Below, piece after piece: positions 14,777 to 36,184 of a stretch of DNA of 64,000 nucleotides (its first letter is position 1; each line of letters starts with the position of its first letter). The notes beneath the pieces were generated by a model, which ran no database searches, had not been told where the DNA came from, and saw nothing but the letters and a program-made list of their open reading frames with translations. A program made the translations under genes and the position numbers. Source of the stretch: a virus. The DNA lies in IMG/VR virus record IMGVR_UViG_3300037515_000591, positions 7,403 to 71,402 of that record; one strand, given 5' to 3'.

Positions 14777-14778
14777 CT

Positions 14779-15186: not shown

Positions 15187-15200
15187 CTGGAGCCCGCCCC

Positions 15201-15404
15201 GTGAGTGCCCCGTTGAACCTGACCGCCGAGCAACTCCGCACGATCGCCGCAGCCCTCGACGAACTCACCGAAATCACGAAGCTGCGCGAGGTGTCGTTCA
15301 CGCCTTCCGGCTTCCTCGAAATCGGACTTGCCGACAACACGCTGAGCGTGACGCGGGACAGCGAGACCGGCGCGTACGTCATCGACGACCGCAACGGCGA
15401 CTAA
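15201..15404 (+). CDS. hypothetical protein
   Basis: 67 aa ORF with coding-like composition. Confidence 0.55.
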   Translation: MSAPLNLTAEQLRTIAAALDELTEITKLREVSFTPSGFLEIGLADNTLSVTRDSETGAYVIDDRNGD

Positions 15405-15414
15405 GGAGAAACCC

Positions 15415-16513: not shown

Positions 16514-16755
16514 ACGTCTTCGAGACCGTCTACGTCATCGGCGCCGCGATCTCCGCAGTCATCCTCGCCATCGACATCACCATCGACGAGGCCGACTGGA
16601 GCAGGCGCATGGTCTCGTTCCCGGATCCTGGCGAGCCGCTTCGGATTGAAACCGAACACGTCGTCAGCGGCATCCTGATGGGGCTTGTGACTGCGTTCGT
16701 CTGGCCGGTTGGGGTTCCGGCGTACTTCCTCGCGTTCAGGACCCGGCGTGGGTGA
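16510..16755 (+). CDS. small two-helix membrane protein
   Basis: GTGA overlap start. Hydrophobic stretches VIGAAISAVILAI and GILMGLVTAFVWPVGVPAYFLAF. Confidence 0.55.
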   Translation: MNVFETVYVIGAAISAVILAIDITIDEADWSRRMVSFPDPGEPLRIETEHVVSGILMGLVTAFVWPVGVPAYFLAFRTRRG

Positions 16756-16939
16756 CCGTCTGCGTCCGGTGCGCCTGTTCGGCCGCGACTACTACTGGCA
16801 CGCCGGGCCCGGCCATCCGCTGCAACTGCTGCCCGCCGTCCCGTGGCCCGAGCTGCCCAAGGTGCAGCCCGAGGATCTGTACTCGGAGTTGGTCCGCCTG
16901 TACGCCCGCCCACTCCCACAACCCGAGGAGATCCCTTGA
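16748..16939 (+). CDS. hypothetical protein
   Basis: I preferred this frame over the Cys/Pro-rich alternative at 16752-16946. The start is GTG 16748. Confidence 0.4.
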   Translation: MGDRLRPVRLFGRDYYWHAGPGHPLQLLPAVPWPELPKVQPEDLYSELVRLYARPLPQPEEIP

Positions 16940-17409
16940 CGGCTGACAGCCCGCGACGCGTGATCACGCTGAACTGTTTGACCTGCGGCGAGACCGGCAT
17001 CACCGTATGGGCCGCACACGCCAGCGCCTGCCCCGGCCCGTCCCACGGCGGCGGGCCAGCCGAGACCATCGAAGGCGTCCGTCACCTCGAAGCCCGCCTA
17101 TGGGAGAACAACGACGCTCGGGAGATGCCCGTCTCCGCCGTGTGCCACTCGATCGCTAACGATCTGCGGGACGTCCTCGCAGACGACGATCACCGGCCTA
17201 CCGCCCCCGACCTGACCACCGGCACCCGAGGTGAGTACAACGAGTGGGTCATCGAGACGAAGCTCGGGCGCAGGCTCGCTGTGTGTGTCGACCGCAGCCC
17301 GTATCGGGAGGACGCACGCCGGCGGTTGGAGGAGCTACGGGCCGAGCATCCGGGGATGGTGTTCCGAGTGGTCCGGGAGACGAGTACGCGTACTGAGGAG
17401 GATTGGTGA
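16936..17409 (+). CDS. hypothetical protein
   Basis: The TTG start overlaps the upstream stop. Contains LNCLTCGETG...ACPGPSHGG. Confidence 0.5.
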   Translation: MTADSPRRVITLNCLTCGETGITVWAAHASACPGPSHGGGPAETIEGVRHLEARLWENNDAREMPVSAVCHSIANDLRDVLADDDHRPTAPDLTTGTRGEYNEWVIETKLGRRLAVCVDRSPYREDARRRLEELRAEHPGMVFRVVRETSTRTEEDW

Positions 17410-18023
17410 TGCCTGACCTGCATGGCTGGCTGAGTCAACAGATCGACGCGGTGGAAGCCGTAGCGCGGGCCGCAGCCTCCGACGGAACGCCCGACTGGTA
17501 CACCAAGAACCATTTCGCTGTAGCCGACGGGGACGGCGATGCGGTCGCGTACAACGAGGGAAACCCCACCCCGGACCAGGCCCGACACATTGCCCTGCAC
17601 GACCCTGCGGGCGTGCTGCGCCGTTGTGCCGCTGACCGGAAGATTCTCGCCGAGCACCGGCCCCACGGCGGCAAGTGGGAGCCGTACGCCTGCGAGGGGT
17701 GCGGCATGGACGGCGGGGACTGCGCCGACTGGATGGTTGAGCACGTCAACGACTGCCCGACGCTGCTCGCGCTCGCGGAGGGGTACGGGCTCACCGGCGA
17801 GCAGCGCGCCGTACTGGACCGGCCCGAGCCTGAGCGGCCTGCACCGTCCGGGCCCAGCCTTCTCCCTGACGGGCTCGCCGAGGCCATGTTCGGCAACCTG
17901 TACGCCTTCGCACTCGGTGTACGGGAGGTTGAGCGGAGCCCGGAGGTGAAGGCGATGGAGATCCTGAACCCGGAGTTGAAGAAGATCCCCGGCTACCTGC
18001 CCACCACCGAGGAGCAGCAGTGA
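17409..18023 (+). CDS. DUF6221-like protein
   Basis: The segment ARHIALHDPAGVLRRCAADRKILAEH matches my memory of the DUF6221 family seen in actinophages. Confidence 0.65.
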   Translation: MPDLHGWLSQQIDAVEAVARAAASDGTPDWYTKNHFAVADGDGDAVAYNEGNPTPDQARHIALHDPAGVLRRCAADRKILAEHRPHGGKWEPYACEGCGMDGGDCADWMVEHVNDCPTLLALAEGYGLTGEQRAVLDRPEPERPAPSGPSLLPDGLAEAMFGNLYAFALGVREVERSPEVKAMEILNPELKKIPGYLPTTEEQQ

Positions 18024-18337
18024 GGCGCCTGATCAGCAACAAGACTCTGTGGCCTCTGCACGTCGCTCAGGGCCGCGCCGAGGAGATCTCCGCGTGGGTG
18101 GCTGCGAACGGCATCGAACCCGACGACGTGTCCACCAACCATGATCTGATCGTTGAGGACGTGGCAGGCGTTCTGTCGATCCGGTGCACGGTGTACCTGC
18201 GGACGCTGGACGGCTCCAAGTACGTGGATGGCGCGTTGGATGACGCGGCGGTGGCGGAACGGCGTGTGCCGCTGCTGGTGCTGCCGCCGGATTCCTGGCC
18301 GACGTGGGCGCTCGCCGACGAAAGGCCACAGCCGTGA
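18020..18337 (+). CDS. hypothetical protein
   Basis: GTGA overlap start, 105 aa. Confidence 0.55.
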   Translation: MRRLISNKTLWPLHVAQGRAEEISAWVAANGIEPDDVSTNHDLIVEDVAGVLSIRCTVYLRTLDGSKYVDGALDDAAVAERRVPLLVLPPDSWPTWALADERPQP

Positions 18338-18588
18338 GGCCACTGCAATGCGTGATCGGCCGCCACGCATGGACCGGCTGGCGTAAGCACGAGAAGGGAT
18401 GCGGCGACCACGGCTGCGACCGCTACCTACGCCGCTGTACTCGGTGCCCGAGGTGGCAGCGCAAGTTCCCAGGAGGGCGACCGCGCGAGTTCGAGTGCCG
18501 CTGCCTCGCCTTCGCCTGCTGCTCGGACGAATGCCGCCAAGGCCGATGCCCATCCATCCCAGCCGAGCTCAGAGAGGACACCCGATGA
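18334..18588 (+). CDS. Cys-rich small protein
   Basis: GTGA overlap start. Contains CGDHGCDRYLRRCTRCPRW...CRCLAFACCSDEC. Confidence 0.5.
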   Translation: MRPLQCVIGRHAWTGWRKHEKGCGDHGCDRYLRRCTRCPRWQRKFPGGRPREFECRCLAFACCSDECRQGRCPSIPAELREDTR

Positions 18589-18905
18589 GCCAACCACTCG
18601 ACGAACAGCAGATGCGAGATGCCTGGGACACGGCTGTACAGGACTGCCTGACCGGGCACGAGAACTGCTCGTACGGCGGCATGACCCCACAGACCGGCTA
18701 CTGGCTCCAAGCCGAGGGCTGCCAACTCAACCACGGTGAGAGGTGCGTGTGGTGCGGCGGCGAGGCGGAGACGGGGTTCTCCAACTGGGCCGACGACGGG
18801 TTTTCGATCTACCGGGTTCCTGCGTGTGAGGGGTGCGCGCAGCAGTGGGTGCGGTTCGATGTTCGGTGGGTGCGGAGCATCGCGGACGAGGAGCCCACCC
18901 CGTGA
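18585..18905 (+). CDS. hypothetical protein
   Basis: ATGA overlap start. Contains the motif LTGHENC and CVWCGG...CEGC. Confidence 0.55.
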   Translation: MSQPLDEQQMRDAWDTAVQDCLTGHENCSYGGMTPQTGYWLQAEGCQLNHGERCVWCGGEAETGFSNWADDGFSIYRVPACEGCAQQWVRFDVRWVRSIADEEPTP

Positions 18906-19336
18906 GCAACTACGCGTACGCCAGCGTCCCAGGCAACGACTCTGCGATCGTCGGCCCCGAAACCGTCAACGGCACCGGACAGGTCTACCTCCACGCCGAC
19001 GACCTCTGCTTCCTCAGCAACGAGGAAGCCCGCGAACTCGGGCGCGCGCTGATCGAGGCCGCCGACTACGCGAAGGCCGTGCAGAACGAGAAGGAGAACT
19101 GGCCGGGCGGCGGACCGCCCAAGTCTGTACTCGACGTCGCGTGGACCGATCCGCAGTGGCGTTCCGCTGGCCCGGACGGCGACCCCGACACCGCGTGCAG
19201 CGCCTCTCACCGCCCAGACCCCCGCAGCACCAGCCCCCGGAGCGTTGCCCGTTGCACGCGGGGCTGCGGCCACTGCGGGGCGCACGCCGGGGCCGACTTC
19301 GACGGAAGGTCGTACCAGTGGGAGGACACGCGATGA
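18902..19336 (+). CDS. hypothetical protein
   Basis: GTGA overlap start, 144 aa. Confidence 0.5.
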   Translation: MSNYAYASVPGNDSAIVGPETVNGTGQVYLHADDLCFLSNEEARELGRALIEAADYAKAVQNEKENWPGGGPPKSVLDVAWTDPQWRSAGPDGDPDTACSASHRPDPRSTSPRSVARCTRGCGHCGAHAGADFDGRSYQWEDTR

Positions 19337-19452
19337 CCGTCACGCTGCGACTCGTCGTCGAGACGTGCTGCGCCTGCCCCAACCAGTGGGACGCCTGGAC
19401 CGTCGACGGCCAATACCTTGCATGTCAACTATGTTCGCGAATAATGTTGTGA
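19333..19452 (+). pseudogene. 39-codon ORF, possibly a truncated gene
   Basis: MTVTLRLVVETCCACPNQWDAWTVDGQYL then runs into an AT-rich segment and stops. Confidence 0.35.
19418..19446 (+). promoter_or_regulatory. near-consensus sigma70-type promoter TTGCAT-17 nt-ATAATG
   Basis: Read directly: ttgcat at 19418-19423, a 17 nt spacer, and ataatg at 19441-19446. The GTG of the next gene is at 19465. Confidence 0.5.
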
Positions 19453-19464
19453 CACAATGGAACT

Positions 19465-19662
19465 GTGACCGACTACAGCCAGCGACTCAAGAGGGCCCGC
19501 GCCGCCTATGACAGAGCGCGCTCCGCCTTGTTTGCAGAGATCAAGGAAGCGCTCGAAGCCGAAGACGGACCAACCGTCTCCCAGATCGCACGCGACGCCG
19601 ATTTCACCCGCGAGTACATCGCCAAGATTCGCGATGGCCAGGGACCGAAGGAGACGCGATGA
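19465..19662 (+). CDS. small DNA-binding-like protein
   Basis: 65 aa. TVSQIARDADFTREYIAKIRDG is HTH-like. The stop overlaps the HNH gene start. Confidence 0.55.
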   Translation: MTDYSQRLKRARAAYDRARSALFAEIKEALEAEDGPTVSQIARDADFTREYIAKIRDGQGPKETR

Positions 19663-20222
19663 GCGGACGTGTCTGCGCAGTAGACGCATGCGAAAGGCCG
19701 CGCCATCGCCGCGACTGGTGCGTTATGCACCACAGCCGCTGGAAGCGGACGGGGAACCCGCTTGGCGCGCGAACCAGCCCCGACGTGCGGTTCTGGGCGA
19801 AGGTCGACAAGCGCGGTCCGATGTCGGAGCACCGCCCGGACCTCGGTGCATGCTGGGTGTGGACTGGCGGCAAGGATCGCCTCGGGTATGGGCACTTTTG
19901 GCTGGACCGCAGCCACGTGCTCGCCCATCGGTTCGCATACGAACTGCTGGTGGGCCCAATCGCGGGGAGTCTAGAGATGGACCACTTGTGCCGGGTTAGG
20001 CACTGCGTTAACCCGCACCACCTCGAACAGGTAACTCACCGGGTGAACACTCTGCGCGGCACGTGCCCTTCAGCGCAGGCGGCACGGGTGACCCACTGCC
20101 CACAAGGGCACGCGTACAACGAGGAGAACACCCGCATCTATCAGGGGCGACGGTACTGCCGTGAGTGCAGCCGTGAAGCGAGCCGCCGCTACAAGGCCTC
20201 TAAGCGGGCGGAGCGGGAGTGA
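19659..20222 (+). CDS. HNH endonuclease
   Basis: Motif LAHRFAYELLVGPI...LEMDHLCRVRHCVNPHHLEQVTHRVN, followed by a zinc-ribbon tail. Confidence 0.8.
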   Translation: MSGRVCAVDACERPRHRRDWCVMHHSRWKRTGNPLGARTSPDVRFWAKVDKRGPMSEHRPDLGACWVWTGGKDRLGYGHFWLDRSHVLAHRFAYELLVGPIAGSLEMDHLCRVRHCVNPHHLEQVTHRVNTLRGTCPSAQAARVTHCPQGHAYNEENTRIYQGRRYCRECSREASRRYKASKRAERE

Positions 20223-20286
20223 TCACGCTGACGGAGTTCCTACGCCGGACGGGCCTGCGACTCGCACCAGACGCGGTGGTGAGCTG

Positions 20287-20625
20287 ATGAGTACCGAGTG
20301 GATGACGCCCGAGCAGATCCGGCAACACCGCGCCGCCGAGATCATGGAAGGCCCGCTCGGCCAAGCCATCTACGACGTCATCATCTGGACACGGAAGCAA
20401 TGGCCACCCATGCGGTCCGATGACGAACTGTGGCTCAACCCCACCGACCACGGCGCCACCGTGCTGATCGGCGGCCGGGTGCTCGGCTACGAAGTGTGCG
20501 CCTCCGAACAGGTGCCGCCCGGCAAGGCGCTGATCTACTGCAAGGCCCTCAGCGCGTACGTGGGCGACGGGCAGATGCCGGACGGCCGGTACATGCTGGT
20601 GCGACTCCCGGAGATCACGCTGTGA
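20287..20625 (+). CDS. hypothetical protein
   Basis: Internal ATG at 20287, 112 aa. Confidence 0.55.
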   Translation: MSTEWMTPEQIRQHRAAEIMEGPLGQAIYDVIIWTRKQWPPMRSDDELWLNPTDHGATVLIGGRVLGYEVCASEQVPPGKALIYCKALSAYVGDGQMPDGRYMLVRLPEITL

Positions 20626-20924
20626 GCGACCGCATTCCACTCGACCCCGACCAGGCCATCGCCTTCGACAAGGCGACAGAGAACCGCCGCGAATACATCC
20701 GAGCGGAAAGACTCGACCAGCTGGCCGACGGTGGCGAGTCCGTGCACTACCCGGGCTGCCCTGAATGCGGCGTGCCGGCGAAACACGTCGTGTGGTCCAC
20801 GTACGACCAGGGTCCGGGCGGTGTGCTGGAGATCGATTTGGGTACGTGCGGGCATCGGTTCACCGTGAGCCCGGTACCAGCACGCTTCGACCCAGACGGC
20901 TTCTGGTGGCACTCGGAAGACTGA
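20622..20924 (+). CDS. hypothetical zinc-ribbon protein
   Basis: GTGA overlap start. Contains YPGCPECG...GTCGH. Confidence 0.55.
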   Translation: MSDRIPLDPDQAIAFDKATENRREYIRAERLDQLADGGESVHYPGCPECGVPAKHVVWSTYDQGPGGVLEIDLGTCGHRFTVSPVPARFDPDGFWWHSED

Positions 20925-20933
20925 CGACCGCGC

Positions 20934-22988
20934 TCACTCCCAGCGGGCCACGAACGTGCCCCTGCACCGCACGCCGCCCTCGCACCGCAGATAGCCGCCC
21001 GCACCATACGCAGCCCGCACCGCGTCCAAGTCGTCGAACTCCGTGCCGTCGATCTCAGAGCACGGGTCACACACCCGGCTGTCGTTCTTCTCGCTCGCGA
21101 AATACCGGGCAGTCGGCGCAGCGGCCAACGTCGCCACCCGGCCCGCGTTCTGCGCCCGATGCAACGCACCCCCAAGCTGGTCACGCCGGAACCAATTCTT
21201 CAACCCCTTCAGGAACCGGGTGACCTTGCCCGCCACACCCTCACCGTCCGCACCCGGCGTCAGCAGACGCAACGCCTCACGCCCCGCAGACCCGGCAAGA
21301 TCAGCAGCCAGCAGAGCAGCCGTCGCCGCGGCGATCTCCACCAACTCCGACCCGAACGCGTTCGTCAACGACCGGCTCAAACGCGGCGGCTTCACCTTCA
21401 CACCCTGCTCGGCAGCCTCCGCCACCATCTGCGCGGCAGCAGCCTTCGCCATGTCGGCGAGCGCACCCCGCAGCACCTTCGCCGCCACATCCGAGTCCAC
21501 ACTCAGATCAGCGAGCGCCTCAGTATCACCCGCATCCACCGCGGTCTCGATCTGCGCGGCGAGCGCCTCAACCTGCGCCTCCGCGACCGGCTCCCACGCC
21601 TCCAACAGCCCAGCCAGCGCCTCCTCGAACTGGACCCGCACCCGCTCCAACGCATCGTCATCAGCCTGCGCACGCACCCGACCGTGCTCCAACACCCGGT
21701 TGTACGACGGCTGCCCGGCAGGCAACGCGAACGGCACATGGTGATGCAAGTCCAGACGGGCCGCCGGCGCGGGCACAACCGGAGCCTGCTGAGGCGCCCG
21801 AGCAGGGGCCGGCGCCCGGTACCCCAGATCCGGCAAGCCCAAATACTCCGACGCCAACCGAGGATCCGCGCCCCCATCCACCAGCGTCTTCCACGCCACC
21901 GTCTTCGACTCCGCCTCCTTCACCTCCAACTCCCGGTCCGTCGGAGTCGGATCCACAAAGTCGAACTCCAGGGCACGCGCCGCATCCTTGCCGTACAGCG
22001 GTAGCAACTGGTGGTTCAGCGCGCCGCGGATCGCCCGCAGATCCGGGACGACCAGCCAGCGGGAGAACATGACATCGGCGGCTTCCATGTTGGCGCGGTT
22101 CGCGTCATCAACTGTGCCGAGCATCGGCTTGGGGAAGCCGAGCCCTTCGCGGATGACCTCGCGGGACGCCGCGTTCGACTCGACGAACTGCATGTCGCGC
22201 TGCGTGTACTTGCGGTCCTTCCACACCCCGTGCTCCAGGAACGCGACACGGTGGGCGTTGGCAACACCCTTGTGCTGCTCGTCCCAGCGGGCCTGCAACT
22301 GGTCCCACTCGGGGTCGGAGAGGACGGAGGGGAGTTCGATGATCCCGCCCGGCTCCGCGCTGTTCATGAAGAAGTTCCGCTGCCATTCGGCCGCGAACTT
22401 GTTCGAGTCGATCTCGGCGAGCAGCGGCTGAATCGGCGAGATCCCCCGGTACGGATCCCTCGGGTGCGGCGTACGAATGAAGATCACGTCTTCCAGACGC
22501 AACGCCACCTCCTCACCCCCCGGCCCCGTGTACATGTACCCCGACAGGAACTTCGTGGGATGCGGCACCGGCTGGATACGGTCCGGGCGCACATTCCACA
22601 TCTCCAGCGGCATCGTCGACCGGGCGCTATTCCGGGCGATCACCCACCACGTCTCCCCCGTCAAACCCTTGTGCTGCTGCCCCGCTTCCACGAAAATCTC
22701 GCGGGTGAAGAACGGGTTCGGCTTATTCCACAGGTCGAGCGCGGGATGAACCGCAACTTCCTGCCGGTCCTCCTTCAGCCCAGACTTGGCCTTGCGGTAC
22801 AGATGCCACTCCACCCCGGCCACAGCCTTCGACCAGCGGCTGACGATCGCATGGACGGTGCCCACCGTCTCCATCGCCCGCATCTGCGCCTCAGCACCGC
22901 TGGGTGCCCGCCACGGAATCGACAGCCCGCCACGGGCCGACACGTACGGCACCGGCGTCTTATTCCTCAGGGCACGTAGAGACCTCAC
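20934..22988 (-). CDS. portal protein fused to a MuF-like minor head domain
   Basis: The N-terminal two thirds are portal-like. The C-terminus ...FASEKNDSRVCDPCSEIDG...YLRCEGGVRCRGTF is MuF-like. The start is GTG 22988 with RBS GGAGAAGGGGA. Confidence 0.8.
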   Translation of the reverse strand: MRSLRALRNKTPVPYVSARGGLSIPWRAPSGAEAQMRAMETVGTVHAIVSRWSKAVAGVEWHLYRKAKSGLKEDRQEVAVHPALDLWNKPNPFFTREIFVEAGQQHKGLTGETWWVIARNSARSTMPLEMWNVRPDRIQPVPHPTKFLSGYMYTGPGGEEVALRLEDVIFIRTPHPRDPYRGISPIQPLLAEIDSNKFAAEWQRNFFMNSAEPGGIIELPSVLSDPEWDQLQARWDEQHKGVANAHRVAFLEHGVWKDRKYTQRDMQFVESNAASREVIREGLGFPKPMLGTVDDANRANMEAADVMFSRWLVVPDLRAIRGALNHQLLPLYGKDAARALEFDFVDPTPTDRELEVKEAESKTVAWKTLVDGGADPRLASEYLGLPDLGYRAPAPARAPQQAPVVPAPAARLDLHHHVPFALPAGQPSYNRVLEHGRVRAQADDDALERVRVQFEEALAGLLEAWEPVAEAQVEALAAQIETAVDAGDTEALADLSVDSDVAAKVLRGALADMAKAAAAQMVAEAAEQGVKVKPPRLSRSLTNAFGSELVEIAAATAALLAADLAGSAGREALRLLTPGADGEGVAGKVTRFLKGLKNWFRRDQLGGALHRAQNAGRVATLAAAPTARYFASEKNDSRVCDPCSEIDGTEFDDLDAVRAAYGAGGYLRCEGGVRCRGTFVARWE

Positions 22989-23360: not shown

Positions 23361-23996
23361 GTGAATCCACCAGTTCAGGTTGTGTACAAGGGCGTTACGT
23401 ACAAGCGGAATCCCAACAGCGATGACTGGCCCAAGCGCGTGTATTACCAGGCGCCTCGCGGCAGCGGACGCGGATACCTGCACCGCGACGTCTTCACCGA
23501 CGCCAATGGTCCGATCCCGGACGGCATGCACGTCCATCACCGAGACCACGACCCGTTCAACAACGACCCGTCGAATCTGACGCTCCTCACCCCGAAGCAG
23601 CACCGCCAAGAGCACAGCAAGAAGTTCGACGAAGCACGCATGAAGATCTTCAGGGAGACCACTCTCGCAGCTGCGGCGAAATGGCATGGAAGCGAAGAAG
23701 GCCGCGCTTGGCATCGGGAGCACGGCCGCAAGACCTGGGAGGGGCGCGAGACGAGCACCTTCACATGCCCTGAGTGTGGGGAGGAACACCAGGGGCACTT
23801 CCTGGCGCGCACCGGCCCTGAACGGTACTGCTCAGGGCGTTGCAGGCAGCGAGCGGAATGGCGAACGAAGAAGTACTGGGAAGATGCCACCTGCCCCATG
23901 TGCTCGGCAGCGTTCAAGCGACAGCGGGGACGTAGTGAGACTTGCTCGCGCAGTTGCGGGGCAAAGCTCAATTGGCAGCGGCGTGCGTCCTCATAG
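23361..23996 (+). CDS. HNH endonuclease (antisense to the late operon)
   Basis: Motif MHVHHRDHDPFNNDPSNLTLLTPKQHRQEH plus C-terminal CxxC pairs. It converges on the large terminase with a 6 nt overlap. Confidence 0.8.
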   Translation: MNPPVQVVYKGVTYKRNPNSDDWPKRVYYQAPRGSGRGYLHRDVFTDANGPIPDGMHVHHRDHDPFNNDPSNLTLLTPKQHRQEHSKKFDEARMKIFRETTLAAAAKWHGSEEGRAWHREHGRKTWEGRETSTFTCPECGEEHQGHFLARTGPERYCSGRCRQRAEWRTKKYWEDATCPMCSAAFKRQRGRSETCSRSCGAKLNWQRRASS

Positions 23997-29646: not shown

Positions 29647-29679
29647 AGGCCTCGCCGTCGGGGGGACGCGGCGAGGCCT
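29647..29679. terminator. bidirectional terminator hairpin between convergent units
   Basis: AGGCCTCGCCG ... CGGCGAGGCCT, an 11 bp perfect inverted repeat. Confidence 0.6.
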
Positions 29680-29730: not shown

Positions 29731-29871
29731 TCAGCCTTTCGGCTTGCCGGGGACGGGCTTCTTGGCCTTCGGGTAGTAGCCGCCTCGCGACGCCTGGTAC
29801 TCGGTCGGCTGCTTCTCGTAGTCCGGGATCCGGTTGGGGTCGCGGGTCGGCCAGTTCTTGGGCAGCGCCAT
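29731..29871 (-). CDS. small basic protein
   Basis: MALPKNWPTRDPNRIPDYEKQPTEYQASRGGYYPKAKKPVPGKPKG, with RBS AGGAG. Confidence 0.4.
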   Translation of the reverse strand: MALPKNWPTRDPNRIPDYEKQPTEYQASRGGYYPKAKKPVPGKPKG

Positions 29872-29957
29872 GATGGGGCTCCTGTCTCGCGTGTCGGGAT
29901 GGGACCGGGGCGGCCGGTTAGCTGGCAGGCAGGCGGCCGCCCCGGGGTCTTGTGGGC

Positions 29958-30206
29958 TCAGCGGCCCCAGCAGTTCGCCAGCAGCAGCGCCAGGAAAAAC
30001 AGCAGCGCCCAGAACGAACCCGACGGCAGACACCCGTCGCCGCGGGCTTCCGCATGCACGTGACGGACCTCGTCGCCACCGGCCGGCGCGAGCCCTCCGT
30101 GCGCGTCCCGGCGATGGGCGGCGCCTTCGTCCATGGCGTCCGCTTCGCGGGCGCGGCGCTCCGGGGAGACCGCGTCACAGGCCCGACAGAAGTACTCGTA
30201 CGGCAT
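29958..30206 (-). CDS. small protein with C-terminal hydrophobic helix
   Basis: MPYEYFCRACD...SFWALLFFLALLLANCWG. Confidence 0.4.
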   Translation of the reverse strand: MPYEYFCRACDAVSPERRAREADAMDEGAAHRRDAHGGLAPAGGDEVRHVHAEARGDGCLPSGSFWALLFFLALLLANCWGR

Positions 30207-30236
30207 CAGGGTCTCCGGGGGGCAGTAGGCGCGCGT

Positions 30237-31307
30237 CTACGATGACTTGACTAGACGGCCGTTGATCACGTCGTACCTGTGCACCCCTGGGCCGTTCCCC
30301 TTCGGGGTGCGTACGCCGGGCCGTACGTTGATGTCGGCCTTGTCGAGAAGGTCTCGCACGGCCTTGGTGTCCCCGAGACCGAAGCGTTCACGAACCGTAG
30401 TGAGCAGTACTCCCCTGTCGTCGCCTACTAGCCGGGCAACGGCCGCTCTCACCTGGTCCGAGCTTGCGGTAGCAGCATCGAACGAATCGTCTCCCGTATC
30501 GGCGAAGACCTTGCGAGAGTGCCCAGGCCCAGGGCACGGGCTGATGAAGCCGCGTTGTTCCAAGGCGTCCAGCAGCTTCGCGGCCCTGGAAAAGCCGATC
30601 TTTAGACGTTGCTGGAGCATGGTCGCCGAGGCGATGCCGGTAGAGGTGACCAACTCTGCTGCCTGCGCCAAGAGGTCGTCTGTCTGCCTCTTGCGCAGAT
30701 CGAAAGCCTCGGCCTCGCTCGGGTTGTGACTTGCTACGAATTGCTTGATGTCTCGCGTGTACTTGAACCACTCGCTCCGTCGGACTCGCGCGTCCTTGAA
30801 GCGGTCGTGCAGCGCGGCTTCGAGTTCCCTGCCACCAGCCAGGGTCAGCGCGACGTTCTCCTTCGGCTGGGCCAGAGACGACAGGCGTCCGCCCAAGTTC
30901 GTCGAATAGCCGATCTTGACCCGGTCTCCGTTCGCGATGAAGTAGACGACCGGCTCGTGAGGTCCGCTGAATACGGGCTGAACGGCTTTACCGAAGACTG
31001 GCTGCTGGACTGTCCCTGATGCGGCAGCCGCCAGCATCTCCGGGACGATGGAGATGGCCACCTGCATCCGGTGCCGCTGGCACAGCGCTACGGGAACGGT
31101 GGACGTCACGATGTCGGTGCACGGCTGCCCGCTGTCGGCCGCAAGGCAGCGCGCGCTAAGGTCGGTCATGTCGATCTCCTTTGCAGATCGGCCATGCCCC
31201 GGGACCGTTGGCGCGGTCGCCGGGGTCAGTCTTTGGTTGTGTCTCAAGTATCCCATGTGCACCACCTGTTGAGAGCCATCCGGCATGCCTAGAAGCGCGT
31301 AGATCAT
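30237..31307 (-). CDS. T5orf172 (GIY-YIG-like) domain protein with FtsK-gamma winged helix
   Basis: VVYFIANGDRVKIGYSTNLGGRLSSL...ELEAALHDRF...RSEWF is T5orf172-like. ELVTSTGIASATMLQQRLKIGFSRAAKLLDALEQRGFISP matches the FtsK gamma consensus. The start ATG 31307 overlaps the upstream stop. Confidence 0.7.
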   Translation of the reverse strand: MIYALLGMPDGSQQVVHMGYLRHNQRLTPATAPTVPGHGRSAKEIDMTDLSARCLAADSGQPCTDIVTSTVPVALCQRHRMQVAISIVPEMLAAAASGTVQQPVFGKAVQPVFSGPHEPVVYFIANGDRVKIGYSTNLGGRLSSLAQPKENVALTLAGGRELEAALHDRFKDARVRRSEWFKYTRDIKQFVASHNPSEAEAFDLRKRQTDDLLAQAAELVTSTGIASATMLQQRLKIGFSRAAKLLDALEQRGFISPCPGPGHSRKVFADTGDDSFDAATASSDQVRAAVARLVGDDRGVLLTTVRERFGLGDTKAVRDLLDKADINVRPGVRTPKGNGPGVHRYDVINGRLVKSS

Positions 31308-32047
31308 GTGGTCTTCACCTCCTCTCCAACCCCGGAGAGCGGCGGAGAATCGGCGCTCTGACCTGCATCTCCACCGGAATCCACAGGCGACTCTCCATCG
31401 GAGGGGAGGAGGGCCTCGACGTCGCCTCGGCGGACCCCTGAGCGGCCCGCGACTCGGCCCAGGCGGAGGCTGCGATGGACGGGCACATCGAAGGCCCGGA
31501 GTAGGGCCCTCAACTCGGCGTCCGTACGCCCCTCGTGCCCAGGCAGTTCGCGCATCGCCGGGTACAGCTCGCGGAGGTGGATTCCGGGCCGCTTGCCGAT
31601 GGTGTCGAGGAGCCATTGGGCGAGCGCGTGTCGGGGGTCTGCGGGGGCGTCCTCGGCGGCCTCCGGCTGGGTCTCGTCGGGGGTACGTGCGGTGCGCCGC
31701 TCGGTCCATGCGGTTGCCCGGTCGAGGTACTCCTTCGGGATGAACAGGAGCACCGCGGCCAGCCAGGCGAGGATGATGCCGGCCGCGGTCCAGCCGCCGT
31801 AGAAGCCGACCGCCCACACGGCGACGACGTGGACGCCCCACGCCCAGCCGGTGCCGAAGCGGGCGGCGATCCACGAGCTCGGCCCGCACACACCCAGGAG
31901 CAGCGCGCCGAGGCTGCCGGGCGGCTCGGCCGGCGCCTCATCGACGACGGGCTCGGTCTCTTCGTCCAGCTCATCGACCACCTCGTCGAGGTCCTCCTCG
32001 ACGGGCGCCGGCTCGGGCTGGTGTTTCCGCAGGCTGAAGTACGTCAT
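31304..32047 (-). CDS. membrane protein, acidic N-terminus
   Basis: ATG 32047. Hydrophobic helices GALLLGVCGPSSWIAARF, VHVVAVWAVGFYGGW and AAGIILAWLAAVLLFI. Confidence 0.6.
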   Translation of the reverse strand: MTYFSLRKHQPEPAPVEEDLDEVVDELDEETEPVVDEAPAEPPGSLGALLLGVCGPSSWIAARFGTGWAWGVHVVAVWAVGFYGGWTAAGIILAWLAAVLLFIPKEYLDRATAWTERRTARTPDETQPEAAEDAPADPRHALAQWLLDTIGKRPGIHLRELYPAMRELPGHEGRTDAELRALLRAFDVPVHRSLRLGRVAGRSGVRRGDVEALLPSDGESPVDSGGDAGQSADSPPLSGVGEEVKTT

Positions 32048-32448
32048 GCCAGGTTCGCCCCCAGGTCGGCGATCGCGTCGGAGATGTACGCCCACGTGCC
32101 GCCTGCACCTGCGGCGATGTACCAGAAGAAGATCCCCAGGACGCCGATCTGCTTCGTCGTCAGCCGCTTGAACAGAATGAAGATCGCCATGGACAGGGCG
32201 AGCGCGGGCATCGTCACGCCGGGGATCACATCGTTGACGGTCGCGATGAGGCTGCCCACGAAGTCCGGGACGAACTTGAAGAAGCCTCCGGCCGCCTTAT
32301 AGGCGGACCCGGCGAGCATCGACAGAATCAGGGTGGGCCACCAGCCGAGCGGCTTCAACCGGCCGCCGCCGGGGATCCCGACGAGCAAGAGCACGGTGAG
32401 GACGACGGCCAGGCCGACGGTGCCGAGGTTGCCGAACACGCTGTTCAC
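32044..32448 (-). CDS. polytopic membrane protein
   Basis: 134 aa with about four hydrophobic helices. Confidence 0.65.
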   Translation of the reverse strand: MNSVFGNLGTVGLAVVLTVLLLVGIPGGGRLKPLGWWPTLILSMLAGSAYKAAGGFFKFVPDFVGSLIATVNDVIPGVTMPALALSMAIFILFKRLTTKQIGVLGIFFWYIAAGAGGTWAYISDAIADLGANLA

Positions 32449-32457
32449 GACGGGTTC

Positions 32458-33168
32458 CTAAGGCTGGTAGCCGGTGCCGTACAGGGCGATACCGGCGATG
32501 ACGGATGAGACGGGGACGGCAGCAGCCCAGGCGACGGGCCACGCCCACGTGCGGGAGCGCCGGTACAGGGCGCAGGCGCAGAACCCGAGGCCGTACAGGG
32601 CGAATGCGGAGGGGCTGGCCCAGTGGCCGTCGGCGTACCAGGCGGCGGTGTCGGTGCCCCAGTCGACCCAGCCGAGCGGCCAGCCTGCTGCGGCGGCGGT
32701 GGCGTGGTAGATGAGCCAGCGGATGCGGTTGGGGATGCGGTCGTAGGCGTCGAGGAGGGATTGGCGGGGCGGGTGGGGCTGGTCGTCGCGGTATGTGGGG
32801 CGGGCGGTGCGGCGCTTGGGCGGCCGTGGGGCGGGGGCCCGGGTCGGGCCGGGGTCCGCGGGTTCTTCTACTGGCTCCGGTTCGTCCTCGGCGGGCTCCT
32901 CGTCGGCCTCGCCGGCGTCGTCGGCGGTGAGGTCGGTGGGCTTGCGGCTCCACCAGTTCGGGAGCCGTGGCGCAGCCCGGCGCGTGGGCGGCCTGGGCTG
33001 CTCGTCGCCGTACAGGTCGTCCCACCACGCGTCTTCCGCTGCGGGCCGGTATCCGTCCGACGGCGGGCCGGGCGGCATGGGTGGTGGCGTGGCGTCCGGG
33101 CCGTCGATGAGACGGCGGAGACTGCCGCGGATACGGAGCTCGTCAGCGCCGGGCTTCGTCTCGCCCAT
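32458..33168 (-). CDS. Pro-rich N-terminus plus polytopic membrane C-terminus
   Basis: ATG 33168. The N-terminus MGETKPGADELRIRGSLRRLIDGPDATPPPMPPGPPSDGYRP is paralogous to the 33308-33556 protein. Confidence 0.6.
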   Translation of the reverse strand: MGETKPGADELRIRGSLRRLIDGPDATPPPMPPGPPSDGYRPAAEDAWWDDLYGDEQPRPPTRRAAPRLPNWWSRKPTDLTADDAGEADEEPAEDEPEPVEEPADPGPTRAPAPRPPKRRTARPTYRDDQPHPPRQSLLDAYDRIPNRIRWLIYHATAAAAGWPLGWVDWGTDTAAWYADGHWASPSAFALYGLGFCACALYRRSRTWAWPVAWAAAVPVSSVIAGIALYGTGYQP

Positions 33169-33308
33169 CACAGCCCCCACCACATCTGAACGGCGATCAC
33201 GACGGCCATGGCCAGGGAGACGCGGGAGAGGAAACGGGCGTCGGAGGCAGGCGCGCGCCATCCGGCGGCAGCGACGGCCAGGAACCCGCCGAGGAGGAGG
33301 TAGCCCAT
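33168..33308 (-). CDS. 46 aa two-helix membrane peptide (not in ORF track)
   Basis: My translation is MGYLLLGGFLAVAAAGWRAPASDARFLSRVSLAMAVVIAVQMWWGL. It has ATGA overlaps at both ends. Confidence 0.4.
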   Translation of the reverse strand: MGYLLLGGFLAVAAAGWRAPASDARFLSRVSLAMAVVIAVQMWWGL

Positions 33309-33556
33309 CACGCGCCCCTCAGGTAGCGGTTGACGGTCTCCGGCTTGGCGACTGATTCCGGGACGTGCGCGGGGGGCGGGGGTGTGGCGTTGCTGTCGAG
33401 GATGTCGTCGAGCCAGTCCCGCGGGCGCGCGGGCCGGTAGCCGTCAGGTGGCGGCCCAGGCGGCATGGGTGGGGGTTCGACTGTGGGGCCGTCGACGAGC
33501 TTGCGGAGACGGTCCTGGATACGGCGCTCGTCGGCGTCCGGCTTCGCCCCGCTCAT
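33308..33556 (-). CDS. Pro-rich small protein (paralog of the 32458-33168 N-terminus)
   Basis: MSGAKPDADERRIQDRLRKLVDGPTVEPPPMPPGPPPDGYRP... Confidence 0.55.
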   Translation of the reverse strand: MSGAKPDADERRIQDRLRKLVDGPTVEPPPMPPGPPPDGYRPARPRDWLDDILDSNATPPPPAHVPESVAKPETVNRYLRGA

Positions 33557-34572
33557 GACCGCACCTGCCGGGCTTCGCGCAGGTACCGCTTCGCGGTCGC
33601 GGGACTCACGTCCAGGAGCTCAGCGACCTGAGCTGAGGTGAGCCCCGAGTCCTGAGCCACGAGCTCAGCCACCCGCGCCACGCTCTGAGCCCGCTGGGCC
33701 GACTGTGCGGTGAGGTGTGCGGAGAACCCGAAGGCGTGGGCCTCGGGCTCGGCAGCCTGGGCCTGAGGCTCAGGTGCTGCGGCCTGCGACGACGTGAGAA
33801 CGATGGGCGCGCCGGACGGGTGAGGCTCAACCATCTGAGCCTCGGGCTCAACCGCCTGAGCCTCGGGCTCGGTGGGCTCATCGCGCCGCGCCTCGGGCCC
33901 TGGCTGAGCTACCTCGATGGCCTGAGCCGCTACCTCATCGAACGCGCGAAGAGACTCGGCAGTTGAGCCGGCCGTCAGGGCGAGTGGCGTACGGCGCTGG
34001 ATCTCGGCACGCTTCTCGATCCGCTCCAGGCTGATCTGGAAGTCGGCGTCATCGCGGGCAAGGACGGTGCGCGCTTCAGCCTTGATACGGGCGATCTCCG
34101 CGTCCGCGGCCCGGGTGAGCTGCTCCAGGCCGGCCTCGTGGAGCTGCGCGGTGTACGAGCTGCTGCGCATGACGTCGTGGATCTCGGCCTGCTGCTCCGG
34201 GGTGAGGGCGGCCGGGTCGCGCATCGCGGCGAGCGCGAACACCCACACGATCTTCCCGACGCCCACGACGAACGGCCCAGCGATCGCCTGCCCGCGGGAT
34301 GCTTCGGCTCCGTGGATGACGAGGAGGACGGCGACACCGACGGCGATGGCCCAGCCGGCCAGTGGGGCGGGCCATCGGCGGCCGCCGATGGTGACGCCCT
34401 GGTACTCGGCCCACAGGACGGTGACCCAGCCGATGTCTCCGGCGAGGGCGACGGACAGGCCGAACGGTCCGCTGTGCATGAGGTCGGTGATGGCGTAGGC
34501 GGACCAGATGAGGGAGAGGGCTGCGAGGGCGGCGGCGCCGTAGGTGATGGCGGGCCGACGGGTGGTCTTCAT
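33553..34572 (-). CDS. DUF2637-like membrane protein with C-terminal HTH (SpdB-like architecture)
   Basis: ATG 34572. It has four N-terminal hydrophobic helices, a coiled middle, and a C-terminal LTSAQVAELLDVSPATAKRYLREA. Confidence 0.65.
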   Translation of the reverse strand: MKTTRRPAITYGAAALAALSLIWSAYAITDLMHSGPFGLSVALAGDIGWVTVLWAEYQGVTIGGRRWPAPLAGWAIAVGVAVLLVIHGAEASRGQAIAGPFVVGVGKIVWVFALAAMRDPAALTPEQQAEIHDVMRSSSYTAQLHEAGLEQLTRAADAEIARIKAEARTVLARDDADFQISLERIEKRAEIQRRTPLALTAGSTAESLRAFDEVAAQAIEVAQPGPEARRDEPTEPEAQAVEPEAQMVEPHPSGAPIVLTSSQAAAPEPQAQAAEPEAHAFGFSAHLTAQSAQRAQSVARVAELVAQDSGLTSAQVAELLDVSPATAKRYLREARQVRS

Positions 34573-34703
34573 CGGATCTTCCAGGCGTAGGCGGCGATCA
34601 CAGCGCTGACGAGGAACGGTGCGGGTTGGTCGGTGAGGAGGGCGACGGCGGCGCACACGGTGAAGCCGTAGCGCGCGAGGGGCGTTTGGAAGTGGCGGCG
34701 CAT
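34569..34703 (-). CDS. 44 aa hydrophobic peptide (not in ORF track)
   Basis: My translation is MRRHFQTPLARYGFTVCAAVALLTDQPAPFLVSAVIAAYAWKIR. It has RBS GGAGG and an ATGA overlap with the next gene. Confidence 0.35.
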   Translation of the reverse strand: MRRHFQTPLARYGFTVCAAVALLTDQPAPFLVSAVIAAYAWKIR

Positions 34704-34723
34704 CGGGGCCTCCGGGGGTGGGG

Positions 34724-34759
34724 CCGCCGCCCCGCGGGGGGAATGTCGCGGGGCGGCGG
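34724..34759 (-). terminator. 13 bp perfect stem-loop
   Basis: CCGCCGCCCCGCG gggggaatgt CGCGGGGCGGCGG. Confidence 0.55.
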
Positions 34760-34771
34760 CGGTCGGGTGGG

Positions 34772-34984
34772 TTAGCGGGCGCGGTACCAGCCGCCGTGTC
34801 GGTCGCGTTGCCTGTCGGTGTCTTCCCAGGCTTGGCCTTGGCGGGCGGCTCGGGTGGCGCCGTTGTTGCGGTGGCTGCGGCGGCGTTGGCGGGAGGCGGA
34901 TGCGGTCGCGGACTCGCGGCCCGGGTATCGGGTTGCTGCGCGTTCGTGGTCGTTGCCGCCGCCGAGGAACTTGGGGAGCCTCAC
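34772..34984 (-). CDS. small basic protein
   Basis: The GTG start overlaps the upstream stop. VRLPKFLGGGNDHERAATRYPGRES...WEDTDRQRDRHGGWYRAR has high GC3. Confidence 0.4.
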   Translation of the reverse strand: MRLPKFLGGGNDHERAATRYPGRESATASASRQRRRSHRNNGATRAARQGQAWEDTDRQRDRHGGWYRAR

Positions 34985-35091
34985 CGGCCGCCGCCTTGGG
35001 TGCCGGTGAGGCAGTGGGCGAGGTTTCGGCATGCCGCGCAGGTCCAGGCGGTGAGGCCGAACCATCCGCCGCAGGTGTCGCACTGGCTCAC
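34981..35091 (-). CDS. 36 aa CxxC...CxxC peptide (not in ORF track)
   Basis: VSQCDTCGGWFGLTAWTCAACRNLAHCLTGTQGGGR, with GTGA overlaps at both ends. Confidence 0.3.
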   Translation of the reverse strand: MSQCDTCGGWFGLTAWTCAACRNLAHCLTGTQGGGR

Positions 35092-35215
35092 AGCGACCCC
35101 CCAGGCGCGCGACGCGGGAGGCTGTCCTCGGGGTGGGGGCGGGGCGCGGGGACCGGGTGACGTTGCGGCATGTCGCCGCCGGGCCGCTGATGCTCGGGGG
35201 TTGGCTGCTGCTCGC

Positions 35216-35491
35216 TCATGCGTTCACCGCCCGCAGTTCGGCCGCGTACTGGCCTTGCGTCATCCCGTAAGTCGGGGGCGTGGAAGCGAGAAGGTACTGC
35301 CGCTCGCGGACGCTGCTCGTGTTCCGCTCGGCCTCGCCGATGAGGGTGTTCTCGGTCATCGGGGCGCCCGGGTTGGTGTCGAGCTGGTCGGCGATGCTGG
35401 CGGTTTGGGTATGCATGCGGGTGCGTTCGGTGTCGGTGACTTGCCCGGTCGCCGGGGTGGGCTGTTGCGGTTGCCGCTGGATACGATCCAC
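35216..35491 (-). CDS. hypothetical protein
   Basis: 91 aa ORF. The C-terminal half MTENTLIGEAERNTSSVRERQYLL... is clearly coding-like. The start is uncertain. Confidence 0.45.
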   Translation of the reverse strand: MDRIQRQPQQPTPATGQVTDTERTRMHTQTASIADQLDTNPGAPMTENTLIGEAERNTSSVRERQYLLASTPPTYGMTQGQYAAELRAVNA

Positions 35492-35584
35492 GTGGTCATC
35501 TCCTGTGTTGGCAGGTGGTGGCTGGCCCCGGCCGGGCTCTCACAACCGACCGGGGCCGTTCTGTTGGTGCTGTACGAACGTAGC

Positions 35585-35611
35585 GACTTATTGCGCTGAA
35601 CGCAATAAGTC
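35585..35611. promoter_or_regulatory. AT-rich perfect palindrome upstream of the 35627 gene
   Basis: GACTTATTGCG ctgaa CGCAATAAGTC lies immediately before RBS GGGAGGG. Confidence 0.5.
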
Positions 35612-35626
35612 TGGGAGGGTGGCCCC

Positions 35627-36184
35627 ATGCCCGAAGACACGCCACAGGGAGAGGAGCAGCGCGAGATGCTGTCCTTCACCGAGGCTGCCGAACGGCTCGT
35701 CAATGACGGCATCGCCCTGAACATGACCGCCGAAGGACTACGGCGACTCGCCCGTGACCGAAACTCCGGCTGGCCCATCGGCCCCAATGACTACCGGGTC
35801 GTCGGCAAGACGCGGATGCTCCCCTACGAACTGCTCGCGCCGTACATGCGGGAGCGCTATGGGAAGCGGCGAGGGCGTGGCCCGGACACCAAGAAGCGCA
35901 GCCCCAAGTCCCAGTCGCAAGGAGATCCCATGTCCACGACCGTTGATCCGCGTATCGCGATCCTGTCCGCCCTGAACGATCCGCCGTACAACGAGACGGC
36001 CGAGAAGCGGTGCGTGCCGTGGGATGAAGCGGCGCAGCTCCTCAACGCCTACCGGGCGGCCGTCATCCGTGAGGCCGCTGACGCTGTGGCGCAGTTGATC
36101 GCCGATGGAGAGCACGACCCGGACTGTCTCGTCGACGAGCTGCGCCACCTGGCGCGCAAGACGCCCGAGGTGCGGGATGTCTGA
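35627..36184 (+). CDS. HTH DNA-binding protein (MerR/excisionase-like N-terminus)
   Basis: MLSFTEAAERLVNDGIALNMTAEGLRRLA, then a basic linker and a second domain. Confidence 0.55.
   Translation: MPEDTPQGEEQREMLSFTEAAERLVNDGIALNMTAEGLRRLARDRNSGWPIGPNDYRVVGKTRMLPYELLAPYMRERYGKRRGRGPDTKKRSPKSQSQGDPMSTTVDPRIAILSALNDPPYNETAEKRCVPWDEAAQLLNAYRAAVIREAADAVAQLIADGEHDPDCLVDELRHLARKTPEVRDV

Follow-up and report, generated by a model that had tools for sequence, protein, structure and literature searches.

A phage-borne operon of small membrane proteins with an SpdB-family anchor is a probable relative of Streptomyces plasmid spread modules

Introduction

Streptomyces grow as a compartmented mycelium, and conjugative plasmids cross its compartments with TraB and Spd proteins. 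Might a phage carry machinery of the same kind? The question is raised by a locus in the 64,000 nucleotides (nt) analyzed here, which we call the window (positions 7,403 to 71,402 of IMG/VR virus record IMGVR_UViG_3300037515_000591). On the minus strand of the window, at positions 29731–35491 and exactly at the junction between the early and the late genes, lies one operon of 11 well-supported and 3 doubtful genes. It encodes the protein gE, six further small membrane proteins (gD, gG, gH, gI, gJ and gL) and a soluble protein, gK, with several domains of DNA-binding type. A first-pass annotation made from the sequence alone had described a minus-strand run of about 10–14 genes between early and late regions, in agreement with our gene models, and had likened it to the spd (intramycelial spread) operons of Streptomyces plasmids and of integrative and conjugative elements of actinomycetes (AICEs). 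That likeness is now backed by homology (SpdB_N in gE, the operon of plasmid pSAM1, TraB in relatives) and not by architecture alone.

We consider it very probable that the run is homologous to a plasmid spd/tra module and specifies a membrane-associated DNA-handling complex. By analogy with those plasmids, the operon suggests that phage DNA may spread through the mycelium as conjugative plasmids do; intramycelial spread as the actual role is a tentative assignment, to which we give somewhat less than even weight.

In plasmid pSVH1, spdB3-spd79-spdB2 are required for intramycelial spreading and for pocks; SpdB2 is an oligomer with four transmembrane (TM) helices that binds double-stranded DNA (dsDNA) and peptidoglycan and forms pores, and the Spd proteins and TraB interact as one complex in which SpdB2 binds TraB (PMC4447253). 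Spd operons in the literature consist of 3–7 small, diverse genes with overlapping stop and start codons. The occurrence of SpdB2 homologues in actinophages and the idea of a “spread of phage DNA” have already been published (Thoma et al. 2015, PMC4447253); the sentence in question, which cites Smith 1999 and Van Dessel 2005, speaks of putative homologues in phages phiC31 and VWB.

Results

The anchor protein gE and the SpdB family

A large protein database held 393 relatives of gE, nearly all of them from Streptomyces. Precomputed annotation with a newer Pfam release lists SpdB_N (PF27080) for the exact gE protein (faint) and for many of its relatives (weak or unmarked). These listings come with no bit score set against the gathering threshold, as the PF27080 model is absent from the local Pfam copy, in which pIJ101 SpdB itself goes unmatched. 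Profile comparisons point to the same family. A 24-sequence gE alignment matched the single pIJ101 SpdB sequence with 86% probability in hhalign, and against a 16-sequence pIJ101 SpdB alignment the gE family reached 89.7% (E = 1.9e-6) over 110 columns, covering TM2–TM4 and the ALTP motif. When pIJ101 SpdB was used as a tblastn query, it matched only gE homologs.

AlphaFold2, run with an alignment, placed the TM helices of gE at residues 9–34, 36–58, 69–89 and 94–117. They are followed by a helix of about 70 residues (125–194, a coiled coil with a predicted local distance difference test score, pLDDT, above 90), a disordered linker of acidic repeats and a three-helix helix-turn-helix (HTH) domain. 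The predicted template modeling score of the whole model is 0.30, and only the coiled coil and the HTH are confident. The C-terminal HTH matched HTH_23, Sigma70_r4_2 and Xre-like-HTH, all just below the Pfam cut-offs. Across the 24 aligned sequences, the N-terminal domain has 56 invariant columns.

Where gE ends in a cytoplasmic HTH, pIJ101 SpdB has the SpdB C-terminal family (PF27079) instead. PF27079 is listed for all pIJ101-type SpdB proteins and also for P0107, a member of the gE clade that is 66% identical to gE over the N-terminal 61% of the latter. Judged by sequence, gE is an SpdB-family protein with its tail apparently swapped for an HTH.

The first-pass annotation had called this product DUF2637-like. 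Its description of four helices, a coiled region and a C-terminal HTH stands, and the family name does not: the DUF2637 model (PF10935) gave no match at E ≤ 10, SpdB_N is listed in its place, and hhalign of gE against a true DUF2637 plasmid protein (Pfam E = 2.9e-38) returned 24% probability over 43 columns. DUF2637 proteins do resemble gE in having an N-terminal four-TM domain and a long, variable cytoplasmic tail. The label is wrong as a family call and right as a functional analogy, since a true DUF2637 protein occupies the same slot on plasmid NZ_CP108436.

Some gE homologs (P0021, P0012, P0067) have a T5orf172/MUG113 domain inserted between the coiled coil and the C-terminal tail. In P0021 and P0012 the insertion precedes an HTH, and other members of the clade carry other tails. 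As read from these sequences, the fusion is a Rosetta-stone link of T5orf172 to an SpdB-type membrane protein. The linker of gE itself carries an acidic EPEAQxV repeat. At the DNA level (33745–33898), 21-bp-periodic repeats encode these heptads, each unit with GGCTCA...TGAGCC dyad symmetry; they may be just a coding repeat, or they may be cis-acting.

Gene models and the other products of the operon

Since the window is 64–73% G+C (2-kb windows), raw open reading frame (ORF) lists were useless and third-position GC bias (GC3) was used instead. The gene models combine GC3 frame analysis with two independent gene-call sets on another assembly of the same sequence (Logan SRR12683258), whose calls agree for gC–gH and gI–gM. 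In the order of transcription, with lengths in amino acids (aa), the genes are:

gA, 35216–35491, minus strand: 91 aa, soluble, first gene of the operon; GTG start with an AGGAG Shine-Dalgarno sequence
gB, 35088–35219, minus strand: 43 aa, doubtful
gC, 34981–35091, minus strand: 36 aa, CxxC...CxxC, doubtful; called in the independent assembly
gC2, 34772–34984, minus strand: 70 aa, doubtful; called in the independent assembly
gD, 34569–34703, minus strand: 44 aa, single-helix membrane peptide; 4-nt overlap with the gE start
gE, 33553–34572, minus strand: 339 aa, SpdB-family anchor protein
gF, 33308–33556, minus strand: 82 aa, soluble, proline-rich
gG, 33168–33311, minus strand: 47 aa, two-helix membrane hairpin
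gH, 32458–33171, minus strand: 237 aa, 2–3 C-terminal TM helices
gI, 32044–32448, minus strand: 134 aa, 3–4 TM helices
gJ, 31304–32047, minus strand: 247 aa, 2–3 TM helices
gK, 30237–31307, minus strand: 356 aa, soluble, T5orf172/MUG113, FtsK-gamma and a conserved C-terminal domain (CTD)
gL, 29958–30206, minus strand: 82 aa, N-terminal CxxC, C-terminal TM helix; called in the independent assembly
gM, 29731–29871, minus strand: 46 aa, hydrophilic, Lys/Pro-rich, last gene

Two peptides that the first pass had found by hand (44 aa, and 46 or 47 aa depending on the choice of start) were both called independently in Logan SRR12683258. The longer, 100-aa ORF at gM is unsupported; the 46-aa model has a GC3 of 0.94 and was called independently. 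The three doubtful genes (gB, gC, gC2) are linked by 4-nt overlaps and have weak codon-position bias, and no homologs of them were found. For gA there was one weak homolog, in L038 (related loci are cited by L numbers).

A hydropathy scan found TM-like segments in gD (1), gE (4), gG (2), gH (2–3), gI (3–4), gJ (2–3) and gL (1). The expected seven or more hydrophobic products are therefore present as seven membrane proteins, not strictly consecutive because gF and gK are soluble. Start/stop overlaps of the ATGA/GTGA type had been described as nearly universal. They occur at 9 of the 13 junctions in the run, and the same 4-nt overlap occurs at 32 of 63 other same-strand junctions in the window (Fisher p = 0.36). 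Translational coupling is genome-wide in this phage, so we rejected it as a distinguishing feature of the run.

In L039, L040 and L047, a homolog of the peptide gD (54–73% identity) lies immediately upstream of the SpdB-like gene. Over its first 53 residues, gF shares 60% identity with the N-terminus of gH (E = 1e-11), and the DNA contains a direct duplication of 137 nt with 76% identity (33041–33177 and 33429–33565); from this, gF and gG together look like a split, partial tandem duplicate of gH. The gH protein has a conserved N-terminal motif, PPPMPPGPP..DGYRP, followed by an acidic and proline-rich linker, and its homologs are colinear in L026 (a plasmid), L027, L028 and L029 and in several IMG/VR contigs.

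The best-conserved accessory protein is gI (phrog_38677, E = 8e-33). It has 307 homologs, many of them 75–98% identical, and this range of identity spans more than 100 clusters; the homolog on plasmid NZ_CP108436 is 58% identical. Many gI homologs lie on contigs of 65–72 kb (64,868; 64,963; 65,200; 65,649; 66,697; 67,068; 67,502 and 71,979 bp) from Streptomyces assemblies and metagenomes. The whole element may thus assemble on its own, as induced phage DNA or as an extrachromosomal prophage.

The gJ protein (phrog_5650) has an acidic N-terminus and a cytoplasmic CTD, has homologs in L026–L029, and is 26% identical (E = 0.015) to the two-TM-plus-CTD protein of the L001-type module; a sequence search of the PDB with gJ was empty. 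Homologs of gL, 46–71% identical, follow the gJ homologs in L026, L028 and L029. At the end of the operon, gM has counterparts in gM-like homologs of 44–50 aa that end the module in L001, L004, L014 and L024.

The soluble protein gK was predicted in the first pass to contain an FtsK-gamma winged helix, and it does: residues 208–268 match PF09397 with 64.3 bits (cut-off 30.6) as well as FtsK-gamma chains in the PDB (2j5o, E = 4e-7). A T5orf172 check was also positive. Residues 121–185 exceed the cut-offs of both PF13455 (39.2 bits; cut-off 22.3) and PF10544 (29.0 bits; cut-off 20), a GIY-YIG-like T5orf172/MUG113 region that is recorded for gK in the independent assembly too. The NCBIfam scan added only FtsK-gamma and HTH fragments. 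There is no RecA-type ATPase (FtsK_SpoIIIE) domain in gK, only the gamma domain. Its CTD (residues 272–347) is 44–64% identical to the product of a gene 1–2 kb downstream of gE homologs in 16 loci. Direct BLAST found no similarity between the CTDs of gJ and gK, which are linked only through the 220-aa protein of L001. An AlphaFold2 model of gK made without an alignment was too poor for use (mean pLDDT 44). Between gJ and gL, the gene is missing in L026, L028 and L029. Because of its lower GC3 (0.76) and its absence from other copies of this type of module, gK is probably a later insertion. Its domains are nonetheless tied to the module, to judge from sequence relationships, by fusion (T5orf172 in gE homologs) and by homology (the CTD).

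So many tiny TM proteins in one run might suggest a pore or lysis accessory, in which the SpdB-like protein would serve as a pore of the holin kind and permeabilize the membrane late in infection. We regard this as highly improbable. The first pass had seen no endolysin in the run, and no lysis-category Pfam or PHROG family was matched among the ten largest products (gB, gC, gC2 and gL lay outside both scans) or the flanking genes tested. The HTH, FtsK-gamma and T5orf172 domains are DNA-binding domains foreign to holins, and the slot of the relatives is always the early/late junction beside HNH and terminase genes, not a position after the tail genes.

A regular slot with exchangeable cassettes

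The first pass had held this architecture to be foreign to siphovirus genomes. Our comparisons say otherwise. Pattern scans turned up 16 loci among GTDB species genomes as well as 23 contigs in IMG/VR, and about 40 Streptomyces prophages and viral contigs have a gE homolog in this same slot between early and late genes. In at least 11 of the 16 genome loci, a terminase, portal or capsid gene lies downstream and WhiB or RecT upstream, and the precomputed annotation of L001–L005 places the module between WhiB/methylase early genes and an HNH-terminase-portal series. Given one slot in about 40 elements, the SpdB-like gene is a regular occupant in a large group of Streptomyces prophages. Tblastn searches with gE and pIJ101 SpdB against 50,697 deposited phage genomes gave nothing.

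Three types of cassette share the gE anchor in this slot. They combine SpdB with gH-gI-gJ-gL (type A), with a polytopic TM protein and a two-TM/CTD protein (type B), or with TraB (type C).

Type A, the type of the present window, has the order gE, gH, gI, gJ, gL. It is colinear and coupled in L029, a 65-kb S. bobili contig (identities of 62, 38, 81, 43 and 67%), and colinear in L028 with a different, 504-aa protein in the gE slot. On the linear plasmid NZ_CP108436, gH-gI-gJ-gL are colinear behind the genuine DUF2637 protein mentioned above, which fills the gE slot there.

Type B (L001, L004) runs from a gE homolog through a 46-aa TM peptide, a polytopic protein of about 168 aa and a protein of 200–220 aa to the gM-like peptide of 44–50 aa. 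An acidic N-terminus, two TM helices and a CTD 54–59% identical to that of gK characterize the 200–220-aa protein, which is the one with 26% overall identity to gJ.

Type C (L047, L040 and, weakly, L021) consists of a gD-like peptide, a gE homolog, a 97–99-aa protein with three TM helices, a 644–647-aa protein and another TM protein. In L047 and L040, all of these genes are joined by 4-nt overlaps. The 644–647-aa protein combines TM helices at its N-terminus and a MarR-type winged helix at its C-terminus with a Walker A motif (GASDWGKS) and an FtsK_SpoIIIE domain (E = 2.5e-6 and 7.8e-8); pIJ101 TraB has the same architecture. The FtsK-like protein of L021 is weaker (E = 0.01). In these three loci (L047, 6813–10495; L040, 1720–5521; L021, 9666–13497), the TraB-type translocase gene follows the gE homolog directly in one case and after one short gene in two. 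L021 belongs to a cultured strain, S. cupreus PSKA01. Both L021 and L047 have early genes and the pre-terminase gene in common with the window, and the L021 portal is 61% identical. The same phage lineage therefore does carry a TraB-type motor beside SpdB, and the present phage is a version without it.

The middle of the module turns over quickly among loci. Together with the absence here of a traB that relatives have, the internal partial duplication of gH in gF/gG and the apparent insertion of gK, this turnover would fit a decaying passenger, namely the remnant of a plasmid or AICE tra/spd locus that was captured by recombination and is now without traB and without a role in the phage life cycle. 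That reading seems very unlikely to us. All 11 well-supported genes are intact and have strong coding bias; the intact genes, the conservation of gI and of the gE N-terminal domain given above, and the slot kept in about 40 elements indicate purifying selection.

The phage backbone around the operon

The window, from a temperate Streptomyces phage, has a tailed-phage backbone: capsid, ClpP-type protease, portal, TerL, serine integrase, WhiB and RusA. The late genes (capsid, ClpP-type protease, portal and TerL) lie on the minus strand at 11–25 kb, the early genes (WhiB, RusA, an exonuclease, Phage_zn_bind_8 and a DUF4326 protein) at 36–57 kb, and the serine integrase gene at 58.8–60.3 kb. Phage ZL12 was the only nucleotide match of the structural region. 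No tRNA was found in the window and no ParAB genes were seen in the element. No host genes were recognized among the part of the genes scanned against family libraries, the right end (60.4–64 kb) having had no specific check.

Some features of the late region are unusual in themselves. About 20 small plus-strand genes (14526–20924) lie between the prohead protease (12560–14296, minus) and the portal (20934–22883, minus). The block is antiparallel to the head-morphogenesis operon that encloses it, an unusual location for a moron or accessory block, and includes a DUF6221 protein (17403–18023) and an HNH_3 endonuclease (19725–20222). A second HNH_3 endonuclease gene (23382–23996, plus) lies between portal and TerL, antiparallel to both. 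The prohead protease ORF encodes 578 aa, of which only residues 78–210 are the ClpP domain; the long C-terminal extension, possibly a fused scaffold, comes directly before the capsid gene and overlaps it by 4 nt.

The position of the operon immediately upstream of the packaging genes, in all relatives, would suit a membrane anchor for replication, segregation or packaging of the phage genome, as would the several DNA-binding domains attached to or associated with its membrane proteins. The HTH and FtsK-gamma domains would then tether the genome before packaging, with no transfer between compartments. We think this quite unlikely, because spread and transfer proteins are what the homology specifically indicates, a TraB translocase is present in relatives, and Pfam and NCBIfam scans found no ParA/ParB or Rep domain in the run.

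Boundaries and control region

Three features delimit the operon:

Hairpin, 29647–29679: perfect 11-bp stem between convergent gene ends, no T tract
Divergent control region, 35492–35626: 135 bp with a GC-rich inverted repeat and an AT-rich palindrome
Divergent gene, 35627–36184, plus strand: 185 aa, a GC3 gene model, candidate regulator of the operon

The hairpin, with folding energies of −34.7 and −36.7 kcal/mol on the two strands, is likely to be the bidirectional terminator that the first pass had proposed. The palindrome-bearing intergenic region was likewise confirmed (z = −3.7 and −3.4 for the control region). Its GC-rich inverted repeat is at 35524–35557, and a perfect AT-rich 11-bp inverted repeat, GACTTATTGCG-N5-CGCAATAAGTC, at 35585–35611 is an operator candidate. 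This palindrome is unique in the window, arose in none of 100 shuffles, and is not conserved in 52 other loci. A consensus scan for promoters and terminators gave nothing above chance.

Residues 1–77 of the 185-aa divergent product are 35% identical to a divergent 86-aa gene product upstream of the SpdB-like operon of L004, and residues 80–154 are 58% identical to the product of a gene upstream of the L040 operon. The product had no Pfam match (GntR included) and no PHROG match. Nor was a GntR gene found in related loci (0 of the 16 genome loci).

Because the operon has a divergent control region to itself, with an operator-like palindrome unique in the window, it could be expressed independently of the lytic cascade, which bears on a role in exclusion or competition. 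An SpdB-like complex expressed from the prophage would take up or poison those sites at the cross-wall or membrane that incoming conjugative plasmids, AICEs and superinfecting phages use, keeping them from entering or spreading, and gK would cut or bind foreign DNA. A copy of the module without a motor could act as a dominant-negative partner of plasmid TraB, which is conceivable because SpdB2 binds TraB (PMC4447253). The GIY-YIG-type domain of gK also points this way, as does a marginal domain-level match of gK to the candidate PADLOC model PDC-S57 (E = 0.0018). However, the other nine of the ten proteins scanned had no match to PADLOC defence models, and no known defence family appeared among the ten. 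The orientation of the operon is in line with early-to-late lytic transcription, and the relatives with a full SpdB and TraB set look built for moving DNA, not for blocking it. On balance, exclusion is an unlikely function.

Discussion

Comparison with known systems

The operon shares several features with the plasmid and AICE spd operons (pIJ101 spdA-spdB-orf66-kilB; pSVH1 spdB3-spd79-spdB2): small, mostly hydrophobic, coupled genes; an SpdB_N anchor with four TM helices and a tiny TM peptide beside the SpdB gene; a divergent regulatory region with repeats; and fast-diverging accessory genes. It differs in its tailed-phage backbone and in the extra T5orf172-FtsK-gamma protein gK. Unlike a plasmid tra-spd locus, it has no adjacent traB and no GntR-type Kor/TraR gene. 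With neither an adjacent TraB nor a GntR Kor repressor nor a plasmid or AICE backbone, the locus is best classed as a phage-borne variant of tra-spd loci and not as a member.

Among plasmids, tblastn with gE matched 12 from Streptomyces, eight of 85–94 kb (including pSAM1) and four S. zaomyceticus plasmids of 240–323 kb. In the same kind of search, gH and gI matched only two large plasmids and gJ had no match. The closest plasmid homolog of gE (38.6% identity) is on pSAM1 (L006, NZ_CP012383.1, 491–17972), which we take to be a plasmid-phage of the pZL12 type. There it is part of a transfer operon that diverges from a GntR regulator and lies upstream of a type IV coupling protein (T4CP)/TraB-like gene. 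A 46-aa gene precedes the gE homolog and two genes follow it; the downstream genes were considered as relatives of gH–gJ or of the L001-type genes and proved unrelated. The pSAM1 operon thus has the GntR repressor and the T4CP/TraB-like gene, whereas the window element has a serine integrase. Right after the T4CP/TraB-like gene and the SpdB-like operon, pSAM1 has a gene annotated “terminase family protein”. The seven further gE-matching plasmids of about 85–94 kb also look like pZL12-type plasmid-phages.

Among phages, the published statement on SpdB2 homologues in phiC31 and VWB was not reproduced at the sequence level by the tblastn searches of 50,697 phage genomes described above. The phiC31 protein gp25 does resemble gE in architecture (four TM helices at the N-terminus, then an acidic linker and a tail resembling an HTH), and its gene lies at the end of the early region, but there is no detectable sequence homology between the two (hhalign 17%). 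A further difference is that the SpdB-like gene of the window is not a lone gene and heads a conserved multi-gene module. The L047 TraB-like protein is 36% identical to gp10 of phage Gilgamesh, annotated “FtsK-like DNA translocase”, and it matched 63 Streptomyces phage records, which indicates that phage-borne TraB/FtsK motors are common. Phages of the Gilgamesh type have such a translocase and no detectable SpdB_N gene; the window, in contrast, has the gamma domain only, in a soluble gK without an ATPase. In Gilgamesh (L054, 6507–8869), gp10 is followed by the “membrane protein” gp9 with a 19-nt overlap, and this tra-like pair is widespread.

Actinophage SpdB-type genes, the spread hypothesis and FtsK-like translocases in Streptomyces phages are already known. 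Our literature searches did not find descriptions of the conserved multi-gene cassettes, of cassette exchange in one fixed slot (including TraB-bearing versions of the same lineage), of the gH-gI-gJ-gL block that plasmids share behind SpdB_N or DUF2637, or of the T5orf172 fusion link.

How the operon may work

We explain the whole as a Tra/Spd locus of the Streptomyces plasmid kind that is borne by a phage, lacks a motor and would work by the mechanism that follows; we hold this explanation to be just short of evenly balanced. By analogy with SpdB3-Spd79-SpdB2 of pSVH1, the products would build an oligomeric complex in the membrane at hyphal cross-walls. The pore would consist of the anchor gE, whose HTH would tether the double-stranded phage DNA; recognition of the DNA would fall to gK with its FtsK-gamma winged helix, and anchoring or gating of the complex to the polytopic partners. 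For a motor, the complex would borrow either a host FtsK-like translocase or the TraB of a resident plasmid or AICE. In this way phage genomes could, while replicating, reach adjacent compartments of the hypha with no virion involved.

Several observations weigh against this explanation. To our knowledge, virion-independent spread of a phage genome has never been shown. As the first pass had noted for the run, no TraB/FtsK motor is present, and this extends to the whole window, where we found homologs of neither pIJ101 TraB nor the pSAM1 T4CP, and a Walker A motif in none of the coding frames. The SpdB_N matches in Pfam are no better than weak or faint, and gE has no PF27079 listing. For gH, gI, gJ and gL, no counterparts are detectable in the classical small conjugative plasmids. 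The direct repeats in the run are only coding repeats or the gF/gH duplication, with no clustered clt-type repeats found, and the pSVH1 TraB recognition sequence octamer, GACCCGGA, occurs in 10 scattered copies against 5.9 expected, neither enriched nor clustered. Finally, gK may be a selfish insertion of the GIY-YIG type and not a working part.

A still broader proposal, which we consider doubtful, is that a lineage of temperate Streptomyces phages keeps interchangeable plasmid-type DNA-translocation cassettes in a fixed early/late slot and uses them to move naked dsDNA across cross-walls or between hyphae without virions. If true, this would be a second, conjugation-like transmission route for a virus. 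The motor-less version in the window would exploit a TraB/FtsK of the host or of a co-resident element, targeted by the FtsK-gamma protein.

Significance

The locus bears on how a phage infection, or a new prophage, moves from compartment to compartment. It offers a concrete and genetically tractable set of genes (gE, gH–gJ and gK), for which the TraB-carrying phages of L021, L047 and L040 are the natural comparison, and the fusion of T5orf172 with a membrane protein of SpdB type gives a hint of what this domain, widespread in viruses, may do. If phages have borrowed plasmid machinery, then infection dynamics, plaque formation and the establishment of lysogens in mycelial bacteria would include a virion-independent step, and the boundary separating viruses from conjugative elements, already indistinct in the pZL12-type plasmid-phages, would become even less sharp.

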